Positions 3,825 through 27,466 of a stretch of DNA of 64,000 nt are shown piece after piece. Every line of letters starts with the position of its first letter. Position 1 is the stretch's first letter. The DNA comes from Spirochaetales bacterium (GTDB lineage: Bacteria > Spirochaetota > Spirochaetia > JABEVK01): positions 1-64,000 of the forward strand of contig JBAXAI010000002.1 in the NCBI GenBank assembly GCA_037142615.1. The letters are read 5' to 3'. A model generated the notes under the pieces. That model was not told where the DNA came from, ran no database searches, and saw only the letters and a program-made list of their open reading frames with translations. Both the position numbers and the translations under genes were made by a program.

Positions 3825-6602
3825 ATGTTGCAGCTTTCGCCCGCACAAGACGCCATCATCAATCACCGAGGCTCAGACCTTCAGATCATCGCGTGTGCCG
3901 GGGCGGGGAAGACCGAGTCCATTTCCCGCCGTGTTGCAGCCCTCCTGGCGGAGGGTGTTCCACCGTCGGCAATCATCGCATTCACGTTCACCGAGAAGGC
4001 TGGAGCCGAGCTCAAAGAGCGCATCTTCCAACGGACCGAAGACCTCATGGGCCACGACTTTCTCGACACCCTGAGTGCCATGTTTGTCGGCACGATCCAT
4101 GGCTACTGCTTCAGACTCCTTCAGGACAACGTCCCCGAGTACGGCAACTACGACGTTCTGGACGATCACAAGCACGCTGGTCTCCTGAGCCGGGAGTTCA
4201 AGCGCCTGGGCCTGGCTCAGTACGCCAAGCGGCATTGGGACGCTATCGGCGAATGGATTCGCTACACAGACGTCGCGGGCAATGAGTTGTATACCGACGA
4301 GCAAATGGAGGCTGCCGGACTGGGCGAGACCTGGAAGGTCTACAAGGAAACTCTAGACAAGTACCACTTCTTGACCTTCTCGATGGTCATCGCCAAGGCT
4401 GTCGAGTCACTCCAGCGCGACGATATCTTCCAGAAGGTTCACGGGCCGCTGCGGTACCTCATCGTAGACGAGTACCAGGACATCAACCCTGCCCAGGAAA
4501 AGTTGATTCAACTTCTCGCTCAAGCTCCCGTCGAACTCTGCGTGGTGGGCGACGATGACCAAGCCATCTACCAATGGCGTGGTTCCGACATCGACAACAT
4601 GATCACATTCAAGCTTCGAAAACCGGGAGCCAGGCTGGTTGAGCTTCTCGAAAACCGCCGTAGCCGCCCTGAGATCGTGAACCGTGCCTCCGCGTTCACC
4701 CAAACGATTTCGTACCGTCTGGAAAAGAGCATGCTGCCGGTACGGTCCGCCCAACAACCAAGTGTGATTCCTTGGAGTTCCGAAACCGCCGAAGATGAGG
4801 CGGCGCTTTTGGCCGACACGATTTTGAAGCTCAAGGCGCAGGGTCGGGCGTGGTCCGACATGGCACTCTTGTTCCGTTCGGTGCGAACCAGCGCGCCTGA
4901 GTTTCTGGAGGCCTTCCGAGAACGAGACATCCCGTTCTCGGCAGGTGGCCGTACGGGACTCTTCATGCAGGCTGACATGATCGCAATCGGAGAGCTCTAT
5001 GCGTGGCTCGCGGGGAGCAATTGGAGGAAAGGACCTTTCGGAGAGTTTTATGAGCCGGACCTGAACGAAGTGGCCAAGTCTCTTCACCAACTCTTCCCCC
5101 ATGGTCCGGCGTCGGAGGAACTGGAAGGCTTTGTCCAGGACTGGCAATCGTTCTACAAGAAGACCAACAAGCCCTTCGACCTGGTTGGCGACTTCTATCG
5201 GCTCCTGAGTTTCCTCAAGGTTGCCGACCAACTGGACCCGGACTCCTCCGTGGACTCGGCCCGGCTGGGAGCCTTCGCGCGTTTTAGCACCATCCTAGCC
5301 GATTTTGAGAGCGTGACCCGGCGCGGGCGCTACGTTGAGGAAGCCGGTGCCGTCGTCTATCGGGGTGGCCAGAATCGTGGGGTCTGGTACCTCACGAGCC
5401 TGCTGAACTACCTGCTCCACTACGCTCACGGGAACTACGAAGACTTCGAGGGAGAGGACGGCAAGGGTGCAGACGCCGTTCAGGTTCTCACCATCCACCA
5501 GGCGAAGGGGCTGGAGTGGCCCATCGTGTTCCTGCCCAGCATGGTGGATGGTCGCTTTCCGAGCCGACGCAGCGGCCGTGAACAGAACTGGCCGTTTCCC
5601 GACAGCGTGATGGGAAAGGATACCAAAGCCGCCTACCAGGGAACGGAGGACGAGGAGCGCCGGTTGTTCTACACTGCCGTCACCCGTGCCCGCGACGGAC
5701 TGTATCTTTCCTACTTCCGGCGCAAGAAGAACAGCTTCAAACCTTCGCCCTTTCTGGGCGAGTTTCTCGACAATTCCGATATTCCGCTTTGTGAGACTCT
5801 CCCAGTAGTACCGTTCACCGAGGCAGCCAAGATCGCCGAGAACCCCCCTGTGGCTGTCAGCTTCTCCGACACCGCACTCTGGCAGGATTGCGGCTACAAG
5901 TACCGACTTGCCACCATCTACGGCTTTCAACAGAGCATTGCTGAGGAGTTGGGGTACGGACGCGCTTTACACCACGTGTTGCGCCATTTGGCTGAGGCGA
6001 CTCAGGCCACCGGTACCGTTCCCGAGCCTTCGATGCGCAAGGTACTCATCAGCAAGGAGTTCTACCTCCCCTTTGCCGATAACCCGACGTTTGAGCGAAT
6101 GTATGGGGCAGCCGGAAGGCTCGTTGAACAGTACGTTGCCAAACACCAAGACGACCTGTTGAGGGTTTGGGCTGTTGAGCGCCCTTTCGAGCTGCATACG
6201 GCTGACGGGACACTATCGGGCCGCGCCGACGTGATTCTCGACCGTGAGGGCGGCGAGGATGGTCAGCTGGCCATCGTCGACTACAAGGTTGCCAAGGACG
6301 AGGAGCGCGAGCTCCGCTACCAGCAGCAACTCCAAATCTACACCCACGCTGGCCGCAGGGAAGGCGTCAACGTGACAGCTGCCTACCTTCACGGACTGGC
6401 TGGTTCCGACCGCGACGTTGTCGATGTTTCGGACAAGGCGATTGAGCTCGCCATCGCCAAAGCCACTGCCACAATGGCATCCATCCGCCAGAAGGACTTT
6501 CCTCCCCAGACCGAAGCACCCGGCTGCAAGGCTTGTGACTTCAATCGAGTCTGTCGGCACTGCCACCACAAGGTGAAGGCCGAACTGGAGCTGGGCGAAT
6601 GA
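3825..6602 (+). CDS. UvrD/REP SF1 helicase fused to a C-terminal PD-(D/E)XK (RecB/AddB/Cas4-like) nuclease
   Basis: CAGAGKT, DEYQD, GDDDQAIYQWRG, TIHQAKGLEW, EERRLFYTAVTRA; C-terminal GRAD..IVDYK with Cys pattern QDC ... CKACDFNRVC. Confidence 0.92.
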   Translation: MLQLSPAQDAIINHRGSDLQIIACAGAGKTESISRRVAALLAEGVPPSAIIAFTFTEKAGAELKERIFQRTEDLMGHDFLDTLSAMFVGTIHGYCFRLLQDNVPEYGNYDVLDDHKHAGLLSREFKRLGLAQYAKRHWDAIGEWIRYTDVAGNELYTDEQMEAAGLGETWKVYKETLDKYHFLTFSMVIAKAVESLQRDDIFQKVHGPLRYLIVDEYQDINPAQEKLIQLLAQAPVELCVVGDDDQAIYQWRGSDIDNMITFKLRKPGARLVELLENRRSRPEIVNRASAFTQTISYRLEKSMLPVRSAQQPSVIPWSSETAEDEAALLADTILKLKAQGRAWSDMALLFRSVRTSAPEFLEAFRERDIPFSAGGRTGLFMQADMIAIGELYAWLAGSNWRKGPFGEFYEPDLNEVAKSLHQLFPHGPASEELEGFVQDWQSFYKKTNKPFDLVGDFYRLLSFLKVADQLDPDSSVDSARLGAFARFSTILADFESVTRRGRYVEEAGAVVYRGGQNRGVWYLTSLLNYLLHYAHGNYEDFEGEDGKGADAVQVLTIHQAKGLEWPIVFLPSMVDGRFPSRRSGREQNWPFPDSVMGKDTKAAYQGTEDEERRLFYTAVTRARDGLYLSYFRRKKNSFKPSPFLGEFLDNSDIPLCETLPVVPFTEAAKIAENPPVAVSFSDTALWQDCGYKYRLATIYGFQQSIAEELGYGRALHHVLRHLAEATQATGTVPEPSMRKVLISKEFYLPFADNPTFERMYGAAGRLVEQYVAKHQDDLLRVWAVERPFELHTADGTLSGRADVILDREGGEDGQLAIVDYKVAKDEERELRYQQQLQIYTHAGRREGVNVTAAYLHGLAGSDRDVVDVSDKAIELAIAKATATMASIRQKDFPPQTEAPGCKACDFNRVCRHCHHKVKAELELGE

Positions 6603-6715: not shown

Positions 6716-6767
6716 GCCCGTAACTCGCACAATTTGACCCATTTTGAACCCCGCAAAGGACCCCGCC

Positions 6768-9743
6768 ATGGCAAAACAGAAACCTAGCTCTTCCGAGATC
6801 GTCCACCACCTGCATTCCGGCGACAAGCGTTCCAACATTCCGACGTCAGCTTTGGCGGGGCAGGGCTCCATCCCCAAGGCAGCTAAGAAGAAGTACTACT
6901 ACAACCCGCACTTGAGCCCCGTGCTCCGCTTTGACCCGACAGGCAAAGCCGACCATTTGGCCGAACTCATTGCCAAGGCGGGGAAAGGGCCGCTCACCGC
7001 CGACGAACAAAAGACTCTGGCCGAGGCACTCAAGAACCACCAGCCGTGGCTGGAATGGACAGGCAAGCGCGAAGCCGAAGAGAAAGGTTACTTCGAGGTC
7101 GACCCCGTGGCCCTGCACATCCATGAGCGAGTGAGCACCCAGGCAATCCTCCGAGCCGCCAAACGCGAAGACATTCAACGGGACTTGTTCGCCGACCCCC
7201 AAGAGGATTGGCGCGAAACCGTCAAATGGTACCAGCACGACATTGACTGGACCAACCGGTTGATTCTGGGCGACAGCCTTCAGGTGATGACCAGCTTAGC
7301 GACCAGGGAGAATCTTGCGGGGCAGGTGCAGATGATCTATATGGACCCGCCGTATGGAATCAACTTCAAGAGTAATTTCCAGTCGGAGCTTGGGAAAAGG
7401 GATGTGAAGGAAAAAGACAAGGACCTGTCGAGGGAACCGGAGATGGTCCAGGCATACCGAGACACTTGGAACCTTGGAGTCCATTCATATCTGGCTTACA
7501 TGCGTAACCGCCTTGAAGCAAGTAAGTCTCTATTGCACGCTTCGGGCTCAATATTCGTACAAATCTCAGAAGAGAACCTTCATCTCGTCAGGAACCTTCT
7601 GGATGAAGTAATGAAGCCGGAGAATTTCGTGTCAGTCATCTCGTTCCAGACAACCAGCGGGTTTGCAGATGCGAAATCACTTTCCCGACTGGGCGACTAC
7701 ATCCTCTGGTTCGCCAAAGACATTACACAGCTCAAGTACTATCCCCTCTATGACAAACAAGACGTAGAGCCAGGAAGTCTGGCGGCAGGATGGGTGCTTA
7801 CGGCTGACGGGGAATACCGAGGGACAAGTTCGAAAGAAGACAACGGTGAGAGAAAGCTTCCCGAGGGGAGCCGTCTCTACAAAGCAGACAACATTCTTTC
7901 GCAGGGCGCGGCCTCCGAACCACAACCATATGTGTTTCAAGGGAAGCTGTATGAGCCCAGTTCCAACAACCACTGGAAGCCCAGCTTCCCCATTGGGATA
8001 AACCGATTGGGAAAATCAGGGAGAATTCATGTTGCCAAGAACAGCATTCAGTACCGGCGATTTGCCGATGATTTTCCCTACACCTCACGTGGTAACATTT
8101 GGACCGACACGCTCACCGGGAGTTTCACCGATGACAAGGTTTATGTGGTACAGACGAGTCCCAAAGTAATTGAGCGTTGCCTGCTGATGACAACAGAACC
8201 CGGGGACCTCGTTCTTGATCCCACCTGCGGTTCCGGGACCACAGCATTTGTCGCTGAAGAGTGGGGACGGCGATGGATCACTATCGACACGAGTCGCGTC
8301 GCTTCGTCTGTCGCCCGGCAACGATTCATGACGGCGAAGTTTCCGATTTTCGCTTCAAATGTCCCAACAAATGGGGTGATGATCAATCCGGGCAGTGGGT
8401 TTGCGCTCAAGAAAGTACCCCACATCAAGCTCCAACACATCGCCCAGAACACCAACCTCGACCCAATCTTTGCCAAGCATGAACCGATTCTTGATGCTGC
8501 CTTGGTTCGATGCAATTCAGCGCTTGCTCAGGTGACGAGTGAACTGAGAAGTTCTTTGCGGACCAAGTTGGAAACTAAGCAGCGGGCAGAGGGGAAGTCA
8601 TCCATTACCGACGCCGATGAGAGACGCTGGATACTTAGGGACCGTTTCGAACACTGGGAAGTCCCATTCGACACGGAGCCAACATGGCCTCAGGACCTCC
8701 AATTAGCTGTCAAAGCCTACCGAACCGCTTGGCGTGCCAAGATGGACGAAGTCAACAAGTGCATCGCCGACAACGCTGACCAGGAAGAGTTGGTCGACGA
8801 CCCCGTCGTCCTTCCCGGCGTGCGTGTCAGTGGGCCGTTTACGGTGGAAGGGGTCATGCCTATCGAGGAGGGCGAGCTGGCCGGAGAACCAGAAGACCTG
8901 GCAGAAGACCCATATGCCGCTTACGATGCCAGCCGCAATGTCGAGGCCTACCTTGAATCGATGCTGGCCCACCTCAAATCGGACGGTGTGACCTTCCCCG
9001 GCAACCTCGTTCGCAAGTTCCGCAAGCTGGAACCCGTCTGGAACTCTGGCTTTGATCAACCGTGGCACGCGGAAGGCTGGTGGCAAGAGGACGACGAAGC
9101 GGGCGGTCCGTCCATCGCGATCGCCTTTGGACCTCCGTATGGCCCGCTAACGGCCCGAACAATGGAAGACTTGATGCGGCGAGTGGGCAGGAGCTTCAGC
9201 CAATTGGTGGTGGCCGCGTTCAATTTTGACCCTGAGACGGTGGAAGTCATTGAAGACGAAGCATCACACCCCCGCCTCACCATCCACAAGGCTTTCATTC
9301 GGCCCGACATCAATCCCGGCATGGACGGCCTGTTGAAGGACAGCCCTCGGAGCCAGCTGTTCACGGTGTTCGGCAAACCCGAGGTCGAGGTCCATTCTGC
9401 GCCCAATGGCGAATGGCAGGTAGAACTGCTGGGTGTCGATATCTACGATCCCCTCACGGGCGACATCCGCCCCACCAAGGCCGACAAGGTGGCAGCTTGG
9501 TTCCTCGATTCTGACTACGACGGCCGATGCTTCTGCGTAACACAAGCTTTCTTCCCTGACCAGGATGCTTGGGAGAAGATTGCCAAGGCCCTCAAGACCC
9601 AAGCCGACCAGTATGCTTTCGCCCCGTACAAGGGCACCAAATCAGTGACCTTCAAGGCGGGTACGCACGGGCGTGTGGCAGTCAAGGTGATCGACCCCCG
9701 AGGAAACGAAGTCATGGTGGTCAAGAAACTGGGCGAGGCCTGA
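6768..9743 (+). CDS. type III-like site-specific DNA amino-methyltransferase (Mod, beta class)
   Basis: ILGDSL, MDPPYG (motif IV) preceding LDPTCGSGTT (motif I); long C-terminal extension ending VKVIDPRGNE; start at ATG 6768 after AAGGA. Confidence 0.92.
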   Translation: MAKQKPSSSEIVHHLHSGDKRSNIPTSALAGQGSIPKAAKKKYYYNPHLSPVLRFDPTGKADHLAELIAKAGKGPLTADEQKTLAEALKNHQPWLEWTGKREAEEKGYFEVDPVALHIHERVSTQAILRAAKREDIQRDLFADPQEDWRETVKWYQHDIDWTNRLILGDSLQVMTSLATRENLAGQVQMIYMDPPYGINFKSNFQSELGKRDVKEKDKDLSREPEMVQAYRDTWNLGVHSYLAYMRNRLEASKSLLHASGSIFVQISEENLHLVRNLLDEVMKPENFVSVISFQTTSGFADAKSLSRLGDYILWFAKDITQLKYYPLYDKQDVEPGSLAAGWVLTADGEYRGTSSKEDNGERKLPEGSRLYKADNILSQGAASEPQPYVFQGKLYEPSSNNHWKPSFPIGINRLGKSGRIHVAKNSIQYRRFADDFPYTSRGNIWTDTLTGSFTDDKVYVVQTSPKVIERCLLMTTEPGDLVLDPTCGSGTTAFVAEEWGRRWITIDTSRVASSVARQRFMTAKFPIFASNVPTNGVMINPGSGFALKKVPHIKLQHIAQNTNLDPIFAKHEPILDAALVRCNSALAQVTSELRSSLRTKLETKQRAEGKSSITDADERRWILRDRFEHWEVPFDTEPTWPQDLQLAVKAYRTAWRAKMDEVNKCIADNADQEELVDDPVVLPGVRVSGPFTVEGVMPIEEGELAGEPEDLAEDPYAAYDASRNVEAYLESMLAHLKSDGVTFPGNLVRKFRKLEPVWNSGFDQPWHAEGWWQEDDEAGGPSIAIAFGPPYGPLTARTMEDLMRRVGRSFSQLVVAAFNFDPETVEVIEDEASHPRLTIHKAFIRPDINPGMDGLLKDSPRSQLFTVFGKPEVEVHSAPNGEWQVELLGVDIYDPLTGDIRPTKADKVAAWFLDSDYDGRCFCVTQAFFPDQDAWEKIAKALKTQADQYAFAPYKGTKSVTFKAGTHGRVAVKVIDPRGNEVMVVKKLGEA

Positions 9744-9744
9744 C

Positions 9745-12700
9745 ATGATTGCCGACAAACGCTTCGAAGTTCCGGTTCAGGCCGTCCCGACCCCGATTCT
9801 CAACAGCCCGTATGAAGAGCCCAAGGCCCATTGGATTTACAAAGACGGAGCGCCATTTCAGCAAGAAGGACGGCGACCGGCCTCGTACTGGTACAAGGAG
9901 AAGGGAGTTGGTACCGACCAGGGCGACCTATTTGCCGAGGAAGCGCGTGATGACCTCGTCTTGGTAAACCGGCTGCGCAAAGATGTCGGCCGCTGGCGCA
10001 AGTCGGGCTACAAGGGGGCCAGCCAGGTCACGAAGACCTTGCTCAAACACTGGGCGGACCCCATTCGCGGCCGCCGGTTGTTCTTCTGCCAGCTGGAGAG
10101 CGTTGAGACACTGATCTACTTGCTTGAAGTTGCCATTCCGGGTCGCCTGCCTTCCACAGACTACCGCACGTTCGAGGTCACTCAAGCCGCCATCGGTCAG
10201 CTACTGAACGGCGAGTTCCCGGACTCATTCACCGAACTCCGCAAGTCGGACACCTACTACCCGAAGCTCGTCGATCGTCCGGCGGACGAGTCCTTCTTGC
10301 CTTTGACCCGTATGGGCTGCAAGATGGCCACTGGCAGCGGTAAGACCCTGGTGATGGCCATGATGATCGCCTGGGCGTTCTGCAACCGTAGCCGCAACCC
10401 AGCCAGCCGACACTTCCCCAATGCCGTGGTGGTGTGCGCTCCAAACCTCACAGTGAAGAGCCGCTTGCAGGTTCTTCGCGCCGACACCGAGAACAACTAC
10501 TACGACCAGTTCAACCTGGTTCCGACGGCGTTCCGCGATGCGTTGAATGTCGGCAAGGTGCTAGTTACCAACTGGCACACGTTTGCCCTGGCCAGCGAGA
10601 ACTCCGAAGGCGATAAGACCTACAAAGTGGTTCAGAAGGGAGAGGAGTCCCCAGAGGCTTTCACCAGGAATCGCCTGTCCGACCTGGCAGACCGGCTGCC
10701 GCTGTTGGTTCTCAACGACGAGGGCCACCACTGCTGGCGTCCGGCTCCGGTTGAGCCCAAAACCCTGGCGGAACTCGAAGACGACCAGAAAGAAACCCTC
10801 AAGTCGGACCTGGAAGAAGCGCGAGTCTGGCTAGCTGGGCTCGACTTCATCAACAACTCGGGCCTGGCCGGGCGAGACGGCGACGTGCTTCGACGTGGAG
10901 TGCTCGCTTGCATAGACCTTTCGGCTACGCCGTACTACCTCGCGGGCAGTGGCTACGTGGAAGGCAGTCCCTTCCCTTGGCTGGTGAGCGACTTCGGACT
11001 GGTCGACGCCATCGAGTCCGGGATCGTCAAAGTGCCTCGCCTACCGGTCAAGGACAGCACCGGTGCTACCGACGAGGCCGGTCGCCCCGATCCGGAGTAC
11101 TTCCGGTTGTGGGACCATGTGGTCGAAAAGCTGACCAGCAAGGACAAAGTGGGCAAGAAATGGAAGGCAGATGCCCTGTACCGGGAAGCCGAGCCCGCCC
11201 TGCTTATGCTCTACTCCCAGTGGAAAGCCAAGTATGCCGCCTTGCTTGCCTCCAGCCGCGACGACAAACCCATTCCACCGGCGCTCATCGTCGTGTGTGA
11301 CAATACTGACCTGGCCCAGGCCATCTACGAAGCGATTTCCGGCGAGAAGAAAAATGCGGACGGAACGACGACTCGGACAACTTCGATGTTTCCCGAGTTC
11401 CAGAACTCCGACAATGAGCGTCACACCTTCCGGATTGACTCCAAACTCCTCGCGCTCGCCGAGGCAGAAGGCGACAAGACGAAGGACGAAGCTGCCTTGG
11501 CCCAGCGCAACCTGATCAACACCGTGGGTGTACGGGGCAAACCCGGCGAACAGGTACGCTGCGTAGTATCGGTTTCGATGCTCACCGAAGGCTGGGATGC
11601 CAACAACGTGACCCATGTCTTCGGACTAAGGCCCTTCCGCAGCCAGCTCTTGTGCGAACAGGTTGTTGGCCGAGGCCTCCGGCGGATGAGCTACACTCCC
11701 GACCCGATCACCGGCCTCCTGCCAGCCGAGTACGTGGATGTCTACGGCATTCCGTTTAGCCTAATCCCCTTCAAGGGGAGGGACACCACCAAACCGGAAC
11801 CGCCCGAAAAGCCCTACCACAACATCTTTGCCTTGCCCGAGCGCGAGGCATTTGAGATTCGCATCCCAGTCGTGGAAGGCTACACCTATGCACTGCGTGA
11901 AAGCGGTATCAAGTGCAACGTGGACGCCATCGAAGAGTACGAGATCGACGAGGACCCCACACACGTCTACCTTGCGGTGACCAGGGGAATCCGTGACCTC
12001 AAAGACCGCGTGCCCGAAGCCGACTTCGTCAAGCAGGACAAGACCGAGTTCTACCGGCAGGTCCGGGTCCAGCAAATCATTTTCAAGATCGCGCAACACA
12101 TCGTAGAGGACTTGGAACATGGGCAGGGGAAGGCCTATCAGAAGTCGAGGCACCAGCTGTTCCCAGAGGTACTCAAGATTGTCGAAGCCTTCGTGGAGCG
12201 CAGAGTCCGTCTCGGCGTTGGGGTCGACAAGCGTGAGATTGCGGCCGTGAAGCACGTGACGAGAATCCGCGAGTTGCTTCTGGCCGGGATTGTCCCTAAA
12301 GCAGCCAGCGAAGAGGCGCCTCTCATACCTTTGGTGAATCGGTTCCGTCCGGCCGTGGTGACGGGCGACGTGAACTACCGAACTTCGCGCGACGTGGAGA
12401 AGCTCGAAAAGAGCCACCTGAACTATGCTGAACTCCGGAGCAACGACGAGGCGCTCGCGATCCGCACCCTGGAAAATGCACCCAAGGTCCGCTGCTTCGC
12501 CCCCAACTCAAACAACCTTGGACTGAGCATCGGTTATGAGTACGAAGGGAATCAGCACCAGTACATCCCTGACTTCATTGTCGAGTTCCAGAGCGCTGAC
12601 GAGACCCGCCGGTTCCTTCTCCTGGAGATCAAGGGAGTTGGCGGCAAGCGTTGGGAACCCAATCAGGTCAACATCAAGAGCGAGATCGCCAAGAAGTGGT

Positions 12701-13344
12701 GCGATGCTGTTACCAACCTGAAGCGCTATGGGCAGTGGACCTTTGAAATCTGCGAGGAACCTGTCCGCCTTTCGAGCATTCTGGCCAACTTCGGCAAAGA
12801 CTCTGCGGTCGTCGAGCCCTGGAAGATCATTATGCACGAGTTTCAGAAGCCCTGGCAGAACTGCCTGCCAGTCGTCGCGCTCAAGACTGCCGCCGGATAC
12901 TGGAGCCGCGAACAGCTCAACCTGGAAGACGCGCCCGAGTGGGCTGACCTGTGGGTCCAGCCCGAAGGGCAGGAGGGACCTTGGCCGAGTGGCAGCTTCA
13001 TTGCCCAAGTGCAGGGCGACTCGATGGAGCCCCGGGTCCCCAACGGTTCCTGGTGCATCTTCACGCCTCCCAAGGCCGGTTCCCGGGAAGGGAGGGCCGT
13101 GTTGGTGTGGCACTCCGGAATCTCAGACCCGCACACGGGGGGCCAATACACACTGAAGGTCTATCACTCTGAGAAGAAGCAAGACGAGGAATCGGACTGG
13201 GTTCACAACCGTGTTGTTCTCAAGCCGCTGAATCCAGCCTACAACCCCATTGTGCTGGAGCCCCAGGACGAAGGCGAGGTGAGGGTGCTGGCGGAGTTGA
13301 GTACAGTGCTAAGGGCCGAAGGCGGCGTGAGTCGTGGAGTTTGA
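9745..13344 (+). CDS. type III-like restriction subunit (SF2 ATPase + PD-(D/E)XK) with a C-terminal S24/LexA-like peptidase domain
   Basis: KMATGSGKT, NDEGHH, SAT, EGWD, QVVGRGLR; nuclease YIPDF..LLEIKG; C-terminal TAAG..QGDSMEP..YTLK..LKPLNP. Confidence 0.9.
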   Translation: MIADKRFEVPVQAVPTPILNSPYEEPKAHWIYKDGAPFQQEGRRPASYWYKEKGVGTDQGDLFAEEARDDLVLVNRLRKDVGRWRKSGYKGASQVTKTLLKHWADPIRGRRLFFCQLESVETLIYLLEVAIPGRLPSTDYRTFEVTQAAIGQLLNGEFPDSFTELRKSDTYYPKLVDRPADESFLPLTRMGCKMATGSGKTLVMAMMIAWAFCNRSRNPASRHFPNAVVVCAPNLTVKSRLQVLRADTENNYYDQFNLVPTAFRDALNVGKVLVTNWHTFALASENSEGDKTYKVVQKGEESPEAFTRNRLSDLADRLPLLVLNDEGHHCWRPAPVEPKTLAELEDDQKETLKSDLEEARVWLAGLDFINNSGLAGRDGDVLRRGVLACIDLSATPYYLAGSGYVEGSPFPWLVSDFGLVDAIESGIVKVPRLPVKDSTGATDEAGRPDPEYFRLWDHVVEKLTSKDKVGKKWKADALYREAEPALLMLYSQWKAKYAALLASSRDDKPIPPALIVVCDNTDLAQAIYEAISGEKKNADGTTTRTTSMFPEFQNSDNERHTFRIDSKLLALAEAEGDKTKDEAALAQRNLINTVGVRGKPGEQVRCVVSVSMLTEGWDANNVTHVFGLRPFRSQLLCEQVVGRGLRRMSYTPDPITGLLPAEYVDVYGIPFSLIPFKGRDTTKPEPPEKPYHNIFALPEREAFEIRIPVVEGYTYALRESGIKCNVDAIEEYEIDEDPTHVYLAVTRGIRDLKDRVPEADFVKQDKTEFYRQVRVQQIIFKIAQHIVEDLEHGQGKAYQKSRHQLFPEVLKIVEAFVERRVRLGVGVDKREIAAVKHVTRIRELLLAGIVPKAASEEAPLIPLVNRFRPAVVTGDVNYRTSRDVEKLEKSHLNYAELRSNDEALAIRTLENAPKVRCFAPNSNNLGLSIGYEYEGNQHQYIPDFIVEFQSADETRRFLLLEIKGVGGKRWEPNQVNIKSEIAKKWCDAVTNLKRYGQWTFEICEEPVRLSSILANFGKDSAVVEPWKIIMHEFQKPWQNCLPVVALKTAAGYWSREQLNLEDAPEWADLWVQPEGQEGPWPSGSFIAQVQGDSMEPRVPNGSWCIFTPPKAGSREGRAVLVWHSGISDPHTGGQYTLKVYHSEKKQDEESDWVHNRVVLKPLNPAYNPIVLEPQDEGEVRVLAELSTVLRAEGGVSRGV

Positions 13345-13906
13345 GTCACCCAAGAGCGGCAAACAGGACGACAGTCTTCATAGCGTCGCGGGCTTTGCGT
13401 TTGTACAAGAATTGCTGGGAAAGGTCGAGCGCAAGGAGACACCGACAGGAGTCGCTGTGGCGACTCTACGTTCCGAACTACGTAGGGTGCAACTCGGCTT
13501 CTTTGTTGGGGATGCTGAAGTTATGCTCCCTGAAAACGAGGTCGATTTCGGGTCGTTCCTTCGAACGCGCAGGAGCTACATCGAACAACTTGAGAGTACG
13601 CTCCTGGAGTTGGAGGAAATAGACTCCATCGGGATTGCCGACGAAATTGCCGATCCCAAACAGAAGGAGCTAGCCCCACTGCGCTGGAACGGTGCAACGG
13701 CGGCTTTCTGGCAGGTTTTCGACTTGCTGAAATCAGAGAAGCTGATTTCCGGAACGAGGAAAAATTGGGGCGCGCATTTTCTCGATGCCAAAGGAGAGCC
13801 CTTTGCAGGGGACGGTAGCCAGAACCTCCAAAAAGCAGGTCCTCTGACTCCTTCGCTCGTTCGCAAGATCGCCAAAATCGCAGAGGAAACCGACGGCAAG
13901 GAATAA
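13334..13906 (+). CDS. hypothetical protein, C-terminus loosely RteC-like
   Basis: 190-aa ORF before the xis genes; LRWNGA..FWQVFDLLKSEKLI resembles the RteC-type W-x-G helix motif (recalled, unverified). Confidence 0.55.
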   Translation: MEFESPKSGKQDDSLHSVAGFAFVQELLGKVERKETPTGVAVATLRSELRRVQLGFFVGDAEVMLPENEVDFGSFLRTRRSYIEQLESTLLELEEIDSIGIADEIADPKQKELAPLRWNGATAAFWQVFDLLKSEKLISGTRKNWGAHFLDAKGEPFAGDGSQNLQKAGPLTPSLVRKIAKIAEETDGKE

Positions 13907-13993
13907 GGCAAACCAAGACAAACTCGCAGACAAACCCTAGGCGAGCCAATCAGATGCAACGTGATCTTGCGACCTCAAAGGAGGGGTCACAAG

Positions 13994-14233
13994 ATGCACA
14001 ATAGCGACAATCCACGCACCTACTTGAAGCTCAAGGAGGCTGCGGCATACCTCCAAATCTCCCCCCACACACTTCACAGGTGGACGAGCAAGGGGATCAT
14101 CCCCTTCTACAAGCCCAATGGGCGGGTGACCTACTTCCGGCGCGAGGAGCTGGATGCCTGGCTAACGCACAATCGAAGTGCGGCGAACTACGAAGCCACA
14201 TACTTGGCTGAGTCACGGGGCTGGAAACCATGA
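13994..14233 (+). CDS. excisionase-family helix-turn-helix protein
   Basis: YLKLKEAAAYLQISPHTLHRW..G.IP..K..GRVTYFRREELDAW; GGAGG upstream of ATG 13994. Confidence 0.88.
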   Translation: MHNSDNPRTYLKLKEAAAYLQISPHTLHRWTSKGIIPFYKPNGRVTYFRREELDAWLTHNRSAANYEATYLAESRGWKP

Positions 14234-15093: not shown

Positions 15094-15961
15094 CCTGATC
15101 TCTGTTTATCTCCCTGGCCAGAGACCGACTTCTGACGTGGACTTCACACAAACGACCCGGCGCTTTGGAACGAGAATGGCTGACAAGAACTTGCTCATTC
15201 GGCCATACAAGGATGGTACTCTCCTTCAAGGGAGTCTTCCCAAATACTGGGCTGGAGAGAATGCTTCTACCTTGAGTCGCTTCCAACTCCAGGCCACGTT
15301 GTCAAAACTTGAGGCGAGAACTGGATTGGACCTCCGAGAGGGCAAACTCTTCGCCTTCGAAGTGGGTAAGACTCTGCTCGTCAACCGGCCGCCTCGCGAG
15401 TACCTGGATACTTGGTACTCTTTCGGAAGGTTCAAGAAGTGGACCGTGGCGGACTGCCAGACCGTCAAGTTCGTTACCGAGGGTCGGTCGTTCATCGGTT
15501 ACGACAAGCGACTCCAGATGAAAGGGCAGCCCATGCCCGAAGTCTTCGCGGGTTATCACGCTCTCCGTATGGAACTCAAATACCGCAACCGGAAGGCGGT
15601 TTGGAAGATCTATGGGCGAAATCTGAGTCCGTGGGACCTCACAGAGCGCCATGTGCTGGATGACTTGGAGAACAGGTGGAGAGAGTTTTACCGGCGAATT
15701 CCCAAGCCACGACAAGTCAGGATTGATCTTGCAGGACTAACCCAGAAGGAGTTCATGACGGTTTTGGCTCACGTCGGGGCCAAGAGCTACGGCTATGACA
15801 GGATGAACCATCTGCTTTCCGATGGCCAGAAGGCGGGCGATGTTGACCGCTACGTGACTTCCCGAATCAAAGCAGCACTTCGTGAGATTGCTGCCGACGA
15901 TCGACTGACCGATACGACCAGCCTTACCGAGGAGGTAGACGATGCAGTACGACGAAGTTGA
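15086..15961 (+). CDS. phage/plasmid replication initiator, gene II/X (Rep_trans-like) family
   Basis: GSLPKY..GEN, FIGYDK and LRMELK motifs; AAGGAG RBS; located after the xis genes. Confidence 0.7.
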   Translation: MIDLISVYLPGQRPTSDVDFTQTTRRFGTRMADKNLLIRPYKDGTLLQGSLPKYWAGENASTLSRFQLQATLSKLEARTGLDLREGKLFAFEVGKTLLVNRPPREYLDTWYSFGRFKKWTVADCQTVKFVTEGRSFIGYDKRLQMKGQPMPEVFAGYHALRMELKYRNRKAVWKIYGRNLSPWDLTERHVLDDLENRWREFYRRIPKPRQVRIDLAGLTQKEFMTVLAHVGAKSYGYDRMNHLLSDGQKAGDVDRYVTSRIKAALREIAADDRLTDTTSLTEEVDDAVRRS

Positions 15962-16220
15962 CATTGGACCTGACTGGAAGGCGGGCGACGTCCTGACACT
16001 CCTCATTATAGGGATTAACGCTCTTTCGGATGACCTCGAGATGCTACCTTTGAATGACCTCTCACCACTTAAGTTCGCTCTCCTGCAAGAGGTCGCCGGG
16101 TGGCTTCTGACATCGATGAAGGACTCAGCTCGAAATAGTCTTCTCCGGGAAATAGAGGCAATGCCAAAGGATGGTGTTCCGCCAACTGTAGTACTCCAGT
16201 GGTCGAAGACTCTCGACTGA
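15942..16220 (+). CDS. hypothetical protein
   Basis: GGAGG RBS, overlaps the rep 3' end; 92 aa. Confidence 0.5.
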   Translation: MQYDEVDIGPDWKAGDVLTLLIIGINALSDDLEMLPLNDLSPLKFALLQEVAGWLLTSMKDSARNSLLREIEAMPKDGVPPTVVLQWSKTLD

Positions 16221-16393: not shown

Positions 16394-16508
16394 CGCCCCG
16401 AATAACGCCCCGAATAACGCCCCGAATCTGGCGTGAACCGAACGAACCAAACGGTCCTGAACCGAACGAACCGAACGAAAACACCCAAACCAACCGAACG
16501 AACCGAAC
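16394..16508. repeat. short tandem repeats (CGCCCCGAATAA x2.8; GAACCGAAC-type x6), possible origin/iterons
   Basis: 12-mer at 16394, 16406, 16418; 9-mer variants at 16435, 16444, 16459, 16468, 16491, 16500. Confidence 0.8.
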
Positions 16509-16616
16509 GGAAACTCCGTCGCCAGGATCAAAACCAATTGCGGACAGGCGCTCTATAGTGCACCGACAGTACACCAGAGTCAGGTATCATCGTTTCAGGA
16601 CGAGAGGTGCCAATAG

Positions 16617-17360
16617 ATGGAACTGAACTTTGCTGCAGACTATGACTTCGTTGGCGTAGTCAACGAGCTCGAAGCTTTTCATGCCGACGTTGACCAGCGC
16701 GCACAGCGTGGAGACCATGAAAAAGACATCTACCAACCGAGCCGGTACCTCGATACACTGAGGCACCTCCATGTCCATCAGGGCTGCGTCCTCGACTATA
16801 TACCAGACTTGAGCGACAATGGCTCGCCACAGCTCTACGTTCGGCCAGCCGACAGCGAAGCCCTGGTTTCTCGCTCCGAGTTCGAGAGTAGCCGGAGAGA
16901 CGGCAAGTTTGCCAACATGACGGACTACATGGTTTACCTGGATAGAGCTGGTGCCTTTCCCGATTGGCCGAGCATGATCCACCCCGATGACACGCCGGAG
17001 TCTTATTTTGAACTAGCTCTTCTGGCCCGCGTGGGCGGCCGCTGTCTGCTGCGATGGCACGCAGGGTATGAGGCTGTGAAGGTGTTCACTCTCGCCGAAC
17101 AGGTTGGACGTTTGGGCAATGACTTGGAGCGGAGCGAGTTCGAGATTCAGCTTCCCGACGATGTACTCAAAGCTGCTTTGTCACTGGACTTCATGCCCAA
17201 GGTCAACGGACTCAAGAGCGCGGTCCGGGTAAGGTTCATTACCTTCTCTAACTGGGCAGGTTTTCAGCGGCATACGGCGCTCATCGGGGGGCGGAGTCCC
17301 TTCACTTTGAAGGAGTCGTCAGAGGACCTCGTGCCATTTAGCTGCGGTATCGTTTTTTAG
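16617..17360 (+). CDS. hypothetical protein
   Basis: 247-aa ORF, GAGAGG RBS; no family recognised. Confidence 0.7.
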   Translation: MELNFAADYDFVGVVNELEAFHADVDQRAQRGDHEKDIYQPSRYLDTLRHLHVHQGCVLDYIPDLSDNGSPQLYVRPADSEALVSRSEFESSRRDGKFANMTDYMVYLDRAGAFPDWPSMIHPDDTPESYFELALLARVGGRCLLRWHAGYEAVKVFTLAEQVGRLGNDLERSEFEIQLPDDVLKAALSLDFMPKVNGLKSAVRVRFITFSNWAGFQRHTALIGGRSPFTLKESSEDLVPFSCGIVF

Positions 17361-18554: not shown

Positions 18555-19544
18555 CTAGAGTAACCCTATTCCCTTGAGGTAGACCTCGGTCACCTGAATC
18601 GAAGAGTGGCCCAGCAACTCCTTCAGGCCGTAGATGTCCTTGCTCCTACGGTAGTGATCAACGGCAAAGAAGTGACGAAGGTCGTGAACAGAGTACGGCG
18701 CGGTGATTGTACCCTTGGCCGCGAGCTTCCCCGTAACGTAGCGGAAACGCGCCGCTAGTGCGCGGCTTGTGGAGGAATCGAACGGGCGCTTCAGGTCTAG
18801 TTCGGCTTCCAAGAGCACCTTCAGTGCTTCTTCTGGCAGTTCGCCTGAAATCAACTTTGCCTTGCTTCGCGCTGGGAACCGTCGGGATCGAATACTCAAC
18901 GATGGTAGCGCCCCAACTCGAAGGCCTCGGTAGGCCATGACAGCAAACGCGGCTCGGTCCGAAGGCGACTCAGTCGCTGCAAGAATCGCTTGGACCTCGT
19001 CCGTCGTAGGAAACTGAACCTCGCGGCTTGCCCGGCGCTCTGGGCGGGCCTTGGTCCCTCGGAAAGGATTCTGTATCTCGTCGAAGCGCCGAGCCAGAAA
19101 GGTGAAGAATGATGACACCCCGGCGACATCCAAGCGAACCGAACCCGGAGCGCGCCCCTGCGTCTGGAGAAAGTAGATGAAGTCGTCAGCATCCTTGGCC
19201 TTCAGTTCCACGACACGAACACCTCGTTTGTCCGACCATGCCTCGACCCGGTCCAGGGCGCGCGAATAGGCTGCCCGCGTGTGGGTGCTTTTCGTTCGGC
19301 TAGCGTTGACCAGGAAGGCCTCCCGCTCAGCCGCATAGTCGATCCGTTCCAGGTCAGCACGCCTCTTCAGGTCACTTGTGAGATTGCCCACCAAGACAGC
19401 TTGGGCGACCCTTTCCAGCTGTTCAGGCGTCAGGTCTGCAAGTTCGGGGGACTCGAAGGCAAGGCGGCGCGCCATGGCTAAAACCGCTTGGTCGCCGGAG
19501 TGCGGGGTAGGGATGTTCAAGTCAAAGTTGGGGTCAATTCTCAT
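18555..19544 (-). CDS. second tyrosine recombinase (Xer/resolvase-like)
   Basis: GLRVG, HDLRH, LGHSS, VYL catalytic motifs; SAM-like N domain; start placed at ATG 19544. Confidence 0.9.
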   Translation of the reverse strand: MRIDPNFDLNIPTPHSGDQAVLAMARRLAFESPELADLTPEQLERVAQAVLVGNLTSDLKRRADLERIDYAAEREAFLVNASRTKSTHTRAAYSRALDRVEAWSDKRGVRVVELKAKDADDFIYFLQTQGRAPGSVRLDVAGVSSFFTFLARRFDEIQNPFRGTKARPERRASREVQFPTTDEVQAILAATESPSDRAAFAVMAYRGLRVGALPSLSIRSRRFPARSKAKLISGELPEEALKVLLEAELDLKRPFDSSTSRALAARFRYVTGKLAAKGTITAPYSVHDLRHFFAVDHYRRSKDIYGLKELLGHSSIQVTEVYLKGIGLL

Positions 19545-19573
19545 GTCTGACATTATATATGATTATGTCAGAA
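19545..19573. promoter_or_regulatory. dif/res-like recombination site overlapping the recombinase -10 box
   Basis: GTCTGACATTA-TATATGA-TTATGTCAGAA; perfect 8-bp inverted repeat TCTGACAT/ATGTCAGA; TATAAT on the minus strand at 19552-19557. Confidence 0.7.
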
Positions 19574-20403: not shown

Positions 20404-23400
20404 ATGATGTCCAACCTGGATGTGTTCCTGACCCAGAATGAGGAGCGACTCTGGAGGGTCTATGAAGCCTCGCCGAGTCGAATCCGAGAGGACTTCGGTC
20501 GAGAGGAGACAGTGCTTGCCGGTGGCTATGGCTATCGGCAGGTCCTGGAGTTGGTACAGAACGGAGCCGACGCAGTACTTCAGTCTGCACATGACGGAGC
20601 TCAAAGTTCCAGTACTTCCCGACTGAGAGTCCTGCTGACAGGACAATACCTGTACGTTGCCAATACTGGTGCACCACTAACCGAGGAAGGACTTGAGAGC
20701 CTGCTTGCATCGGATATTTCTCCGAAGCGCGACAACCAGATTGGTCGCTTCGGACTGGGTTTCAAGTCTCTACTCGCACTTGGCGGTCGCGTGGATATCT
20801 TCACGAGTGATCGGGGAACCATCCATTTCGACCCAGCGAGATGCCGAAAAACTATTGCTGCCAGATTCGGTGTAGAAGCGGCACCGGGAATGAGACTCGC
20901 CTGGTTTGGCCCTGCCGCAGATACTTCTGATCCAAACCTGGCCACAATGACTTGGGCGGAAACTGTCGTTCGGGCGGAAGTTGGTAACGCTACGACCTTC
21001 GGCCGCCTCAAGAATGAGATCGAAGAGTTCCCCGCTGAGTTTCTCCTGTTCTTCGAGAGTCCGTTGACGATCGATTTGGAGATCGAAGGAGAGACTCCCA
21101 ATCTGCTGAGCGTTGAGAGATTCGGGAACCGACGGACACTTCATCACGAAAGCAAGTCATCAGAGTGGTGGGTTTTCGATAAGGTCATTACAGTCACTGA
21201 CAAGGCGGCACAAGAAGATGCGAGAGGGATTCACCGTCGCGACAAGGTCCCGATTTCATGGGCCGTTCCGGAAGCCCGGGGACGTGACTCGCGGGGCCAC
21301 TTCTGGGCGTTCTTCCCAACGAAGACACCAACCCAAATTTCTGGAGTCCTCAATGCCCCCTGGAAACTGAACTCAGACCGGAACTCGATTGTCTCGGGTG
21401 ACTGGAATACCCTGCTCATGGCTGAAGCCGCTAAACTGATTGTCGACTCGTACCCCTACTTGTGTACTGTCGATGACCCCGCCCGCGCACTGGATTCGTT
21501 TCCCAACGCTGACGTTGGCCACGACGACCTCGCTCTACCGCTTGTGACGGAAGTCTGGGCCAAGATTGCAAGTGAAAGGACGATACCCGATGGAATTGGG
21601 AAACTACGAGACCCTTCGAACCTTTTGCTTTTTCCCGCTCTGAAGGAGGGCGCTGGAATTCTGCCCGTTCCAGTACTTTCTAGCTGGTGTGAGCTGGTAA
21701 CGAGGGACGAACGAGAACGCTATGCGCACCCGATGTGTTACAGAGGTGTTCGCTGGAGCAAACTTCGGCTCTTGAGGCAGAAATTGTCCGCAGATCATCC
21801 CGGCTCCCTTGCGAGCCCGACACTGGTGCAGTGGGCAGAATTGAAATCGGTTGAGATCGAACAATTCGGTCACGTTAACCTGGCGTTTCTCCGCTCCCTT
21901 TTGGAGGTACTTGAAGGGCCAGCAAGTAAGGACTTGCTTCAGAACGCAAGACTGGTACCCGACGCGAGTGGGGTCAGGCGACGTTCCACCGAGCTCGTAC
22001 TCGCGGATCAGGGAAAACTGCCGGAAGGCTACTTCGGAGTACTTCCTTCGTTACTAACCTCACCCGACTGCGTTAGGATAATGGCCGATGTTCTCGACAT
22101 CCAGTACCCCGGGCCTGAGCTGCAACTCAAACAAATTGAGATTCTGCGCAAGCAAGGCCAATGGACGAAGTTCTGGGAGGCCTTTTCCGACTTACCTGCA
22201 ACCTATCAGAGTTCTTACCTCGAAAGCGACGGTGTTCTGGTAAAGGTGCCCGACCGAGTCGGTACTTGGCGTTGGCCGGACGACGTTTTGCTTCCCGGGG
22301 CGGTCGTACAGGACGTAGACGAGAACGCTTCGGTACTCGTCGATGCCATTTTCGCTCGCAAATACGAAAGGATACTTAAGAGGGTTGGACTGACAAATGA
22401 CCACAGATTTGACGAGCTCAGCTACTTCAGCCCTACTGAACTCAAACGTTCTGAGGTCCTCAAGGACTGGGAAGGAGAATGCGGTGCCCTATACCGAAGT
22501 ACCTATAAGAACTTCGTGCACAACTACTACGTAAGGCAATTTGCACTTCCGCGTGGTTGGCATTTACTTGAAAGATGCGGAGCCGATGCCACGCGACGCC
22601 TAACTTCAATCATGCTGACTCTTGTTGCCAAGAAGCTGATTCCAGGGTCAGTGGGCTTCAAACCAGCCGGAGGGGCATACCCCGAACTAACCGTACCTCA
22701 TCCGATTGTGTCGCTGTTGATGCGGTGTGGACGGGTGATGGTTACTGGAGTCGACTTGTCGCTGAGGTTAGCCGTAGCGCGAATCGAAGTACTTAGGATC
22801 GTGGAGCTTGCACCGCCCGAGCTTGGAGGACTCGAAGCCTCCTGGCTCGGGCTGGACTTCAAATTGTTTGACGTTAGCCAGGCTGAGTTCCTTCCACTTT
22901 GGAAGGCAATCGCCAAAACCCCACCTTCGGAACGCTTCCACCTTTCTAGCGCGAGCCCTACAGTCTGGTCCCAAGCAGCGGCTGACGGTTACGTTCCAGA
23001 AGCGCTACCTTTTCGCGGAACAGAGGTTCCGATGACTCAAATTTTGGTGACCTCGAACTTGGATGCCGCTAAACACAGCTACAGTTTGCCACGGCTCGTA
23101 GTCCACCTCAGCGAGGACACTCTACCAATTTGGACTGCGAAAGGTGCTACGCGGCTAGAAGAAGTGCAGAAACCCCTCTGGAAAAATGTAGTCGGCCCCA
23201 CAATGAAACTTCTCGAAGTTTACCCCGAACTTGGGGACTTCCTCGCAGAGGAGAGTGCCGATGGTTTGCTCTACAAACCAGTTGAAGGCCTCATGCTCTC
23301 CCTTGCAGGTCAGAATTCTCCAGTTCCAGTGGCATTTGAGGATCAAACCACTCTGGTGGACCTCAAGCAATGCGAAGTTCTGGGTGCAAGAGAATTGCTG

Positions 23401-26912: not shown

Positions 26913-26966
26913 GCTTGAGGTGCTGGTGAGCGTAAGCTCGTGAAGGTTCAAGTCCTTTTCGCCGCA
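26913..26966 (+). repeat. attR: displaced 3' half of tRNA-Leu
   Basis: GCTTGAGGTGCTGGTG-AGCGTAAGCT-CGTGAAGGTTCAAGTCCTTTTCGCCGCA matches 985-1038 except in the variable arm. Confidence 0.93.
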
Positions 26967-27022: not shown

Positions 27023-27183
27023 TGCGGCGAAAAGGACTTGAATGGGAGCGCCGCCGAGCCTTGAGCGACCCGCAGGGGAGCGGTGCGAGGAAGAGCCCGC
27101 ATGGATGCGGGCGGCAGGCGCGAACCCTGGGCGGCTGGTTTGGCAGGATGCCAAACCACGAAGCCCAAGTCCTTTTCGCCGCA
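27023..27183. repeat. element bounded by 18-bp inverted copies of the tRNA 3' end, with internal palindromes
   Basis: TGCGGCGAAAAGGACTTG (27023-27040) and CAAGTCCTTTTCGCCGCA (27166-27183); hairpins at 27095-27112 and 27136-27158. Confidence 0.85.
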
Positions 27184-27292
27184 AACATTAAAGTCTTTTA
27201 GACTAAGAAATTAGCCTACCGAACAACGGGGGCATATCAACAACGATTCTGCTAGTGTCGCACTTTTGTCGCACTCTGCAGGGAGGAATGAT

Positions 27293-27466
27293 ATGTACCC
27301 CGGGAAAGTTCGCACCCCGTTTTCCCTTTACGAAAGAAAGTTTCCTGGCAGGCCCTCGGTCTGGTACGTCAAGTTTTGGGACGAAAGCTCCCGGAAGTAC
27401 CGCAAGGCCCGGTCCACTGGTGTCGAGGCTGTTGGTAAACGCCGACGACGCGCCGATGCCGAGGCC
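27293..27466 (+). pseudogene. truncated integrase (N-terminal ~58 codons of a close relative of the 1148 integrase)
   Basis: 27166-27466 parallels 1021-1321 at constant offset; MYPGKVRTPFSLYERKF..RRRADAEA, then similarity stops. Confidence 0.9.

Follow-up and report, generated by a model that had tools for sequence, protein, structure and literature searches.

The window analysed here is a stretch of 64,000 nucleotides (nt) from a Spirochaetales bacterium (GenBank assembly GCA_037142615.1, contig JBAXAI010000002.1, positions 1 to 64,000, forward strand), and the analysis concerned a restriction gene within it, Res, whose product ends in a domain resembling the self-cleaving protease of LexA. 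Open reading frame (ORF) analysis showed a single uninterrupted frame at 9745–13344 on the plus strand, encoding a protein of 1199 amino acids (aa). In this one frame a superfamily 2 (SF2) helicase motor is followed by a PD-(D/E)xK nuclease and then by an S24 peptidase domain, here called the tail; all features within Res are given on the plus strand. The Walker A motif MATGSGKT (aa 194–201; 10324–10347) was invariant or nearly so from M194 to T201 across 27 aligned homologues, while helicase motif II, DEGHH (aa 325–329; 10717–10731), was invariant in the same alignment. The nuclease core occupied 12562–12636, with YIPDF at aa 940 (nt 12562–12576) and LEIKG at aa 960 (nt 12622–12636), and its residues Asp943, Glu961 and Lys963 were likewise invariant in all 27. 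Pfam ResIII matched aa 191–330, and the nuclease region gave weak Pfam matches to Tn7_TnsA-like_N and RE_endonuc.

The enzyme was assigned to a family with NCBIfam model NF046055 (BPTD_3080 restriction endonuclease), against which Res scored 873.8 bits (equivalog cut-off 800); this model has 970 positions and ends ahead of the S24 tail. The classical REase_III models of PADLOC matched Res at aa 604–647 only (E = 4.4e-7 and 4.2e-4), and PADLOC assigned no part of Res beyond this stretch of the helicase to any known defence protein. Since the classical models cover no more than these 44 residues, the enzyme is called type III-like. A first-pass annotation, made from the letters of the window, had labelled it type III; that label holds in so far as Res, judged by its profile matches, is a type III-like enzyme of the BPTD_3080 family, and not in the sense of the classical EcoP15I/EcoP1I type.

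The tail was identified by profile, by its motifs and by its predicted fold. Pfam Peptidase_S24 (PF00717) matched aa 1042–1179 (E = 3.2e-9, 36.9 bits; curated cut-off 23.3), and a whole-genome profile scan placed the same domain at nt 12868–13281 with 41.1 bits. The sequence AAG lies at aa 1049–1051 (nt 12889–12897), and the predicted scissile bond within it, Ala1050-Gly1051 (12892–12897), is in a LexA-like register and in a conserved column. The predicted nucleophile is Ser1093 (13021–13023) in G-D-S-M (aa 1091–1094), and the predicted general base is Lys1138 (13156–13158) in Y-T-L-K (aa 1135–1138); these pair with the Ser of GDSM and the Lys of TLK in the LexA of the same genome. The motif LKPLNP begins at aa 1159 (nt 13219–13236). 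The first-pass annotation had read an intact S24 domain from these motifs and had suggested a search with the Peptidase_S24 hidden Markov model (HMM). Each motif was found where it had been placed, and the profile match, the fold and the alignment with LexA were in agreement. Its extent required correction, however: the conserved, folded module, including the cleavage-site region, starts at about aa 1025 and so occupies 12817–13344 (aa ~1025–1199), rather than starting at 12860.

An AlphaFold2 model of aa 1015–1199, built from 46 aligned sequences, had a mean pLDDT of 84.8 and a pTM of 0.82, with confidence falling to 61–74 across the blocks that contain the predicted cleavage loop. All 30 Foldseek matches to the PDB at E ≤ 0.001 were chains of LexA, lambda CI or UmuD. 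With VIA-align, the model gave Z scores of 10.9–11.8 to LexA and of 9.5–11.8 over LexA, CI and UmuD together, while signal peptidases matched at Z 5–7 only. When aligned with the 'cleavable' LexA chain 1jhe_A, residues 26 to 177 of the model fell onto LexA 75 to 198 with a root-mean-square deviation of 2.8 over 115 residues; in this model-based alignment, Ala1050-Gly1051 and LexA Ala84-Gly85 coincide to within about one residue.

The genome also encodes a canonical LexA of 200 aa (111 bits), with R-V-A-A-G, G-D-S-M and T-L-K, to which the tail was 31% identical over 108 aa (E = 2e-7) with both Ser and Lys paired. The distance from the Ala-Gly pair to the Ser is 43 residues in the tail and 35 in this LexA, and in the tail the Lys is flanked by two inserts, one of about 7 aa on its N-terminal side and one of about 10 aa on its C-terminal side. 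Two motifs that are absent from the genome's own LexA flank the Lys in the tail, D-P-x-T-G-G just before and Y-x-S-E-K just after, in the region of nt 13120–13170 (aa ~1126–1144) and the equivalent columns of homologues; on their sequence, they may mark a binding surface. In comparison with PDB sequences, the profile of the module reached LexA chains only weakly (E = 3e-3 to 1e-2), so the relationship to LexA rests on Pfam and on fold. A third Peptidase_S24 match, weak and partial (26.6 bits), was seen on the same contig outside the window, in a 192-aa frame at C2:185093-185308.

RecA is encoded by the genome as well (456 bits), which is necessary, and not sufficient, for RecA-stimulated self-cleavage. 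Excerpts from one study (10.1101/2023.10.30.564768) describe RecA Phe203 as inserting into a hydrophobic pocket of LexA formed by V79, V82, F111, L113, V146 and V153. These residues were mapped onto the tail by sequence offsets from the anchor residues, with no superposition. By such offsets, Phe1085 (Ser minus 8) is invariant and matches LexA F111, Tyr1135 (Lys minus 3) is Tyr or Phe in 144 of 151 sequences, and Thr1048 (Gly minus 3) is replaced by Ala, Val or Ile in most carriers. The residue at Ser minus 6 is Ala1087 and not Leu, and the equivalent of V146 could not be mapped owing to the insert.

The tail was not peculiar to this protein. A word-index search with aa 1020–1199 returned 70 proteins, mostly Res of about 1200 aa; the remainder included DEAD+DUF1998 helicases of about 1980 aa, a MmeI-like enzyme, an AAA ATPase, DUF2075 helicases, a HIT-helicase-PLD protein and a type I HsdR. 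With aa 1–1000 as query, the 120 best-scoring Res homologues were 53–65% identical. The proteins collected, other than Mod and the helicase-nuclease, were pooled, and an HMM built from the tails found the tail in 151 of these 153. With the open frame, and with Pfam and fold in agreement, this leaves virtually no credence for a fusion artefact (an assembly or frameshift join) or for a chance motif, and both were rejected. The tail-less pair (P0082 and P0121) stop just after the nuclease domain and may be decayed copies or natural forms. Two further proteins, P0069 and P0073, have scrambled tails that resemble frameshifts, and may also be decayed copies.

Of 1541 matches (E ≤ 1e-3) obtained in a wider phmmer search of 1.84 billion representative proteins, 825 reached E ≤ 1e-10. 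In nearly all of the best 150 representatives, which ranged from 104 to 1878 aa, the module occupied the C-terminus or lay close to it. The longer ones were chosen for a Pfam survey of cargo, 67 of the 150, and this showed a variety of enzymes: Type_ISP_C/Eco57I, MmeI-type, T1RH-like_C with HSDR_N (type I HsdR), McrBC, RE_LlaJI, Schlafen group-3 helicases, SLFN_AlbA_2, PLDc_2/NgoFVII, HIT+PLD+SF2 helicase, DEAD+MZB (in some cases with the MTES_1575 REase) and RE_endonuc. The survey of Res-S24 fusions suggested by the first-pass annotation found the tail on nearly all close homologues of Res, and commonly on other restriction and defence enzymes besides, among them PLD nucleases, Schlafen-type and DUF1998 helicases, and enzymes of types I, ISP, IIL and IV. 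On a tree of 42 modules labelled by cargo, the label changed at least 20 times over 13 groups (minimum possible 12, shuffled mean 29.2), indicating that the module has moved repeatedly between types of enzyme. In the 401 sampled genomes of the same phylum, 7, including this one, had the module at E ≤ 1e-15, and such a sporadic distribution is as expected for mobile defence genes. A tblastn search of a plasmid collection with the module gave one match, on a 1.8-Mb replicon of Halomonas, where the record is unannotated; this was apparently in another frame than the upstream ORF and was not used.

Conservation of the site and of the catalytic residues was examined on two scales. The broad set comprised Res itself (P0001) and the 150 best representatives, counting filled cells only, in a list that was seeded with an intact module and under-samples dead variants. 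Here, the P1 position was Ala in 128 of 138 and Cys in 8 (Ala or Cys in 136), and P1' was Gly in 134 of 138. The dyad columns held Ser in 146 of 149 and Lys in 148 of 150, and the residue after the Ser was Met in all 150. Cys is the other residue used at the P1 position of S24 proteins, as in UmuD, and an A-A-C-G site was present in three other cassettes. That P1, P1', Ser and Lys are kept across such different carriers indicates that the site and the dyad are under selection.

The narrow set was composed of 123 full-length homologues of Res (≥1100 aa), after the two scrambled tails, the two tail-less proteins and all rows below 1100 aa had been dropped. The first-pass annotation had named dyad residues that were not conserved among fused homologues as grounds for abandoning the claim of self-cleavage, and on this point the result was divided. 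Both Ser and Lys were kept in 94 of the 123: 81 of these retained the whole unit, with A/C-G site, Ser and Lys, while in the other 13 the Gly at P1' was replaced by Ser, His, Thr, Asn or Cys. The remaining 29 had lost the dyad and kept the domain, with the Ser changed to Ala, the Lys to Arg or Gly, or both. The A/C-G site was present in 81 of 94 dyad-intact homologues compared with 7 of 29 dyad-dead ones; site and dyad therefore decay together, as would be expected of one self-cleavage unit.

Loss of the dyad was recurrent. A FastTree phylogeny of the Res core, built without the tail columns, required at least 13 changes between 'dead' and the rest, of which 11 were forced by well-supported branches. 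The smallest well-supported clade around the present Res had 10 members, 6 with dead and 4 with intact tails. Dead tails nonetheless keep the motifs of the domain, namely D-P-x-T-G-G, the L-x-P-x-N strand and the C-terminal strand. Because the domain persists where its dyad is lost, the tail would appear to have a role that does not depend on cleavage as well. Self-cleavage appears to have been selected in most lineages, this Res included, and proteolysis is best described, on these alignments, as an optional layer on a domain with another function.

Res is the last gene of a cassette. Upstream of it, at 6744–9743 (+), is Mod, an N6/N4 DNA methyltransferase of 999 aa from a TTG start (Pfam N6_N4_Mtase, E = 3.4e-28; PADLOC MTase_III, E = 9.5e-150), the stop of which is 1 nt ahead of the Res start. 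This is preceded at 3825–6602 (+) by a gene of 925 aa encoding a UvrD superfamily 1 (SF1) helicase joined to a Cas4/PD-(D/E)xK nuclease with a C-terminal Cys cluster (Pfam UvrD-helicase 5.5e-53, UvrD_C 1.1e-32, PDDEXK_1 4.3e-20, Cas_Cas4 8e-6). The order is thus UvrD-Cas4 (3825–6602), Mod (6744–9743), Res (9745–13344), and UvrD-Cas4 is likely to be the third gene of the cassette. Hudaiberdiev et al. (PMC5704561) in 2017 described a type III Mod/Res pair as the commonest context of UvrD-Cas4 fusions, and predicted such cassettes.

The tail and UvrD-Cas4 were found together when related loci were compared. Of 107 loci of the BPTD_3080 family, 27 from genomes and 80 from metagenomes, 74 could be counted, in that the Res end was complete and was followed by 500 nt or more. 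Of these, three were tailed, and all three had UvrD-Cas4 upstream of Mod; the other 71, at about 30–47% identity, were tail-less and had UvrD-Cas4 in no instance. Requiring 3 kb or more on each side of the Mod/Res pair left 3 tailed and 29 tail-less loci. In a fourth locus with UvrD-Cas4 (L046), Res was cut by the end of the contig.

The same order of UvrD-Cas4, Mod and tailed Res recurred in three genomes (G316, G228 and G188) whose Mod and Res are unrelated to the present ones by BLAST, Mod and Res being about 1078 and 1260 aa in G316 and G228, and 624 and 1022 aa in G188. Their tails have Cys-Gly sites and intact dyads. The loci with UvrD-Cas4 and tailed Res that were compared were L041, L042, L043, L044, L052 and L123. 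In G110, a Res with a dead tail (59% identity) had a helicase-nuclease 5.4 kb upstream. The 401-genome sample contained five further UvrD-Cas4 genes, none of them seen beside a tailed Res: one was next to a type I system, three lacked Mod/Res within the flank retrieved, and the fifth (G352) was on a contig of 2.4 kb. In the opposite case, G105 had a tailed Eco57I-type enzyme and no UvrD-Cas4 on its 9.3-kb contig. Some of these loci contain further genes. At L123, in G188, a gene with HTH_3 and Peptidase_M78 domains (ImmA/IrrE-type) lies between UvrD-Cas4 and Mod at 7554–8699 (+), and in both G188 and G316 Res is followed by an additional, small methyltransferase gene and one for a HerA-like DUF87 ATPase.

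The cassette lies on what is likely to be an integrated island of about 25.9 kb. The integration site is a tRNA-Leu(GAG) gene (956–1038, +; ARAGORN), which is followed by a tyrosine integrase (1121–2350, +; Pfam Phage_integrase, E = 3.7e-18). A direct repeat of the 3' half of the tRNA (985–1038), 54 nt at 91% identity, was found at 26913–26966 (+) and is likely to be the distal end of the island. A longer direct repeat, of 300 nt at 88% identity, links 1021–1320 with 27166–27465; it covers the tRNA end together with the first part of the integrase gene, and may be what is left of another island or integrase in tandem. Immediately after Res, an ORF of 190 aa with a GTG start (13334–13906, +) overlaps the Res stop by 11 nt. 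It had no match in Pfam, PADLOC or NCBIfam, and no homologue in three related loci; it was not counted in the cassette. Further along the island are an excisionase-like helix-turn-helix gene (HTH_17) at 13961–14233, a second tyrosine integrase at 18555–19553 (−), and a second defence-type gene at 20404–25050 (+). The latter encodes a TmtA-like helicase of 1548 aa, the N-terminal 350 aa of which match PADLOC TmtA (E = 3.7e-44), while its C-terminus is an SF2 helicase (ResIII, Helicase_C). Four to six overlapping short AACCGAACGAACC-type repeats were observed at 16425–16517, between ORFs 15942–16220 and 16617–17360.

These observations were best explained, tentatively and at somewhat less than an even chance, by a self-cleaving fuse that is triggered by RecA filaments and turns restriction down after DNA damage. 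Excerpts of PMC13148647 describe S24 proteins as cleaving themselves at Ala-Gly by means of a Ser-Lys dyad, with RecA filaments stabilising the cleavable conformation. In the proposed sequence of events, the tail of the intact enzyme would serve a purpose that is independent of cleavage, such as binding or assembly, for which RecA filaments, UvrD-Cas4 and a second Res are candidate partners. Filaments of RecA on single-stranded DNA (ssDNA) would form after DNA damage, or after the host's own chromosome had been cut and resected. Contact with such a filament would push the cleavage-site loop into the Ser1093/Lys1138 active site, and the protein would cut itself at Ala1050-Gly1051 into a motor-nuclease of 1050 aa and a tail of 149 aa. 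If the tail is needed, its loss would turn restriction down, making this a built-in device for restriction alleviation. The co-inheritance of the tail with a helicase-nuclease that, from its domains, should be able to resect ends into ssDNA is counted in favour. So are the carriers of the tail, nearly all of which are able to break the host chromosome, and the frequent changes of partner type, which argue for a portable regulator and not for the chemistry of one enzyme. That the new C-terminus (...Thr-Ala-Ala here and ...Ala-Ala-Ala in most homologues) might act as a ClpX tag is only an idea. A fragment of LexA is reportedly tagged for ClpX in this manner.

Several points weigh against a RecA-triggered fuse. 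Self-cleavage, the RecA filament as its trigger and 'off' as its outcome are all inferred. The tail is, by sequence, a divergent S24 subfamily, and its inserts and motifs of its own could mean that it engages some protein other than RecA; RecA-independent processing has been reported for at least one LexA-like protein (PMC7101444). Self-cleavage would also seem to be dispensable for the system, given the dyad-dead quarter of homologues and the dead majority in the nearest clade, and dead variants are, as noted, under-sampled in the broad set. With respect to the cassette, the three tailed BPTD_3080 loci are kin and so possibly record one event; the co-occurrence of tail and UvrD-Cas4 in that family may thus be a single ancestral event. 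Lastly, G260 has UvrD-Cas4, Mod and a Res of 995 aa with no tail.

A broader form of the same proposal, which we regard as rather unlikely as a whole, is that of a portable DNA-damage fuse, in which a LexA-derived tail on many unrelated defence nucleases reads RecA-ssDNA and cuts the enzyme off. In cassettes with UvrD-Cas4 a feedback loop would result: Res would cut, its partner would resect the ends, RecA would load and Res would cleave itself. Foreign DNA would be destroyed, and the system would switch itself off once it had broken the host's own chromosome. Lineages with dead dyads would, by this account, retain the filament-binding half only.

The repeated loss of the dyad, with the domain and its subfamily motifs kept, would also be expected if the tail served mainly in binding or assembly, whether of Res with Res, with the RecA filament or with UvrD-Cas4. 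Cleavage would then be incidental, slow and constitutive, or a RecA-independent maturation of no regulatory significance, and the LexA-like protein of PMC7101444 is a reported instance of such independence. The tail also arrived together with UvrD-Cas4 in this family of Res, the sister clades at 45–47% identity being without both. Against this stands the retention of site, Ser and Lys in about two thirds of the Res homologues and, among the other carriers sampled, in nearly all. The joint decay of site and dyad further suggests that, wherever cleavage occurs, it is under selection. This explanation was considered unlikely.

If cleavage is indeed selected, it might switch the enzyme on rather than off. 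The tail would then restrain Res or the cassette until RecA filaments, or ssDNA from phage replication, triggered cleavage and freed a fully active nuclease, making the tail a sensor of infection. In UmuD, S24 cleavage is activating, which provides a precedent. Moreover, the tail occurs on effectors with no methyltransferase domain in the same protein (Schlafen-type, AlbA_2, PLD and DUF1998), which would benefit from a trigger, and a co-inherited UvrD-Cas4 could make the ssDNA signal on incoming DNA. A methylation-guided enzyme, however, needs no infection trigger, and if cleavage were obligatory for activity, the dead-dyad tails would be locked off. Their retention in 29 of 123 homologues is the main argument, from sequence, that favours 'off' over 'on'. 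In addition, LexA and CI have the same layout of N-terminal cargo and C-terminal protease, and cleavage inactivates them, in line with the excerpts of PMC13148647. An activating switch was accordingly thought distinctly unlikely.

It is very improbable that the tail acts in trans, cutting a phage protein, a repressor or the partner helicase-nuclease instead of its own linker: UmuD can be cleaved between subunits, and related signal peptidases cut other proteins, although these resemble the model of the tail at Z 5–7 only, but the conserved A/C-G site lies in cis, in a LexA-like register, and is lost along with the dyad, and no conserved gene for a candidate substrate was seen, the ORF at 13334–13906 being without homologue in the related loci compared.

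Should the proposed fuse be real, its consequences would extend beyond this locus. How a host protects itself from its own DNA-cutting immunity after damage is understood for few type I enzymes only (ClpXP and HsdR). A self-contained and transferable autoprotease tail would be a general, testable answer to this problem of self-cutting, would tie immunity to the RecA filament, the SOS signal, at the post-translational level and not through transcription, and would explain why one module caps many unrelated nucleases. It also gives a testable function for the UvrD-Cas4 partner, predicted since 2017. The series of live, site-altered and dead tails that occurs naturally among close homologues provides ready-made controls.

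With regard to precedent, the first-pass annotation had known of no characterised type III enzyme regulated in this way, and a search of full-text literature, with supplementary tables outside its scope, turned up none among the papers listed: no S24 or LexA-like domain was described there on a restriction or defence enzyme. The main texts of PMC3702460, PMC10542128 and 10.1101/2022.05.11.491447 describe no enzyme of this kind with an S24/LexA-like peptidase domain; in the last of these, 'S24' refers to table numbers, and the lone 'LexA' in PMC3702460 to an N-terminal HTH clade. Nor did S24, LexA or peptidase occur in the main text of the ARMADA paper (PMC12458937) or, supplementary files being outside the scope, in that of PMC5704561, and 'BPTD_3080' was absent from the full-text literature searched. 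As far as is known, the co-occurrence of a tail on Res with UvrD-Cas4, and the repeated loss of the dyad while the domain is kept, are new here.

Comparison with known systems places the tail, the cassette and the proposed outcome in different relations. In its gene set and order, the cassette agrees with the UvrD-Cas4 neighbourhoods of PMC5704561. With the BPTD_3080 family, Res has in common the helicase and PD-(D/E)xK motifs and the adjacent Mod, and it differs in its tail, which was in none of the 71 counted loci at ~30–47% identity. The DUF1998/YprA-type helicases of about 2000 aa carry the same module at the extreme C-terminus, with a different cargo. LexA, lambda CI and UmuD (MEROPS S24, PF00717) share with the tail a fold, a Ser-Lys dyad and an Ala-Gly or Cys-Gly site in a loop, and the first two also share the arrangement of cargo at the N-terminus and protease at the C-terminus; the cargo is a helicase-nuclease of 1050 aa in Res, compared with a DNA-binding domain in LexA and CI. 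Unlike these three proteins, about a quarter of the S24 copies borne by Res are catalytically dead by sequence.

The closest parallel in outcome is restriction alleviation. Type I enzymes are alleviated after DNA damage when ClpXP degrades HsdR, sparing unmodified sites on the chromosome, as excerpts of PMC3874165 relate. By analogy with this ClpXP-dependent alleviation of type IA/IB enzymes such as EcoKI, the activity of the DNA-cutting subunit Res would be removed proteolytically after damage. For EcoKI, however, it is a host protease that degrades the translocating HsdR, whereas Res would carry its own protease and sensor; the proposed fuse, if it exists, would therefore resemble the destruction of HsdR by ClpXP in its result, and yet be autonomous and portable.

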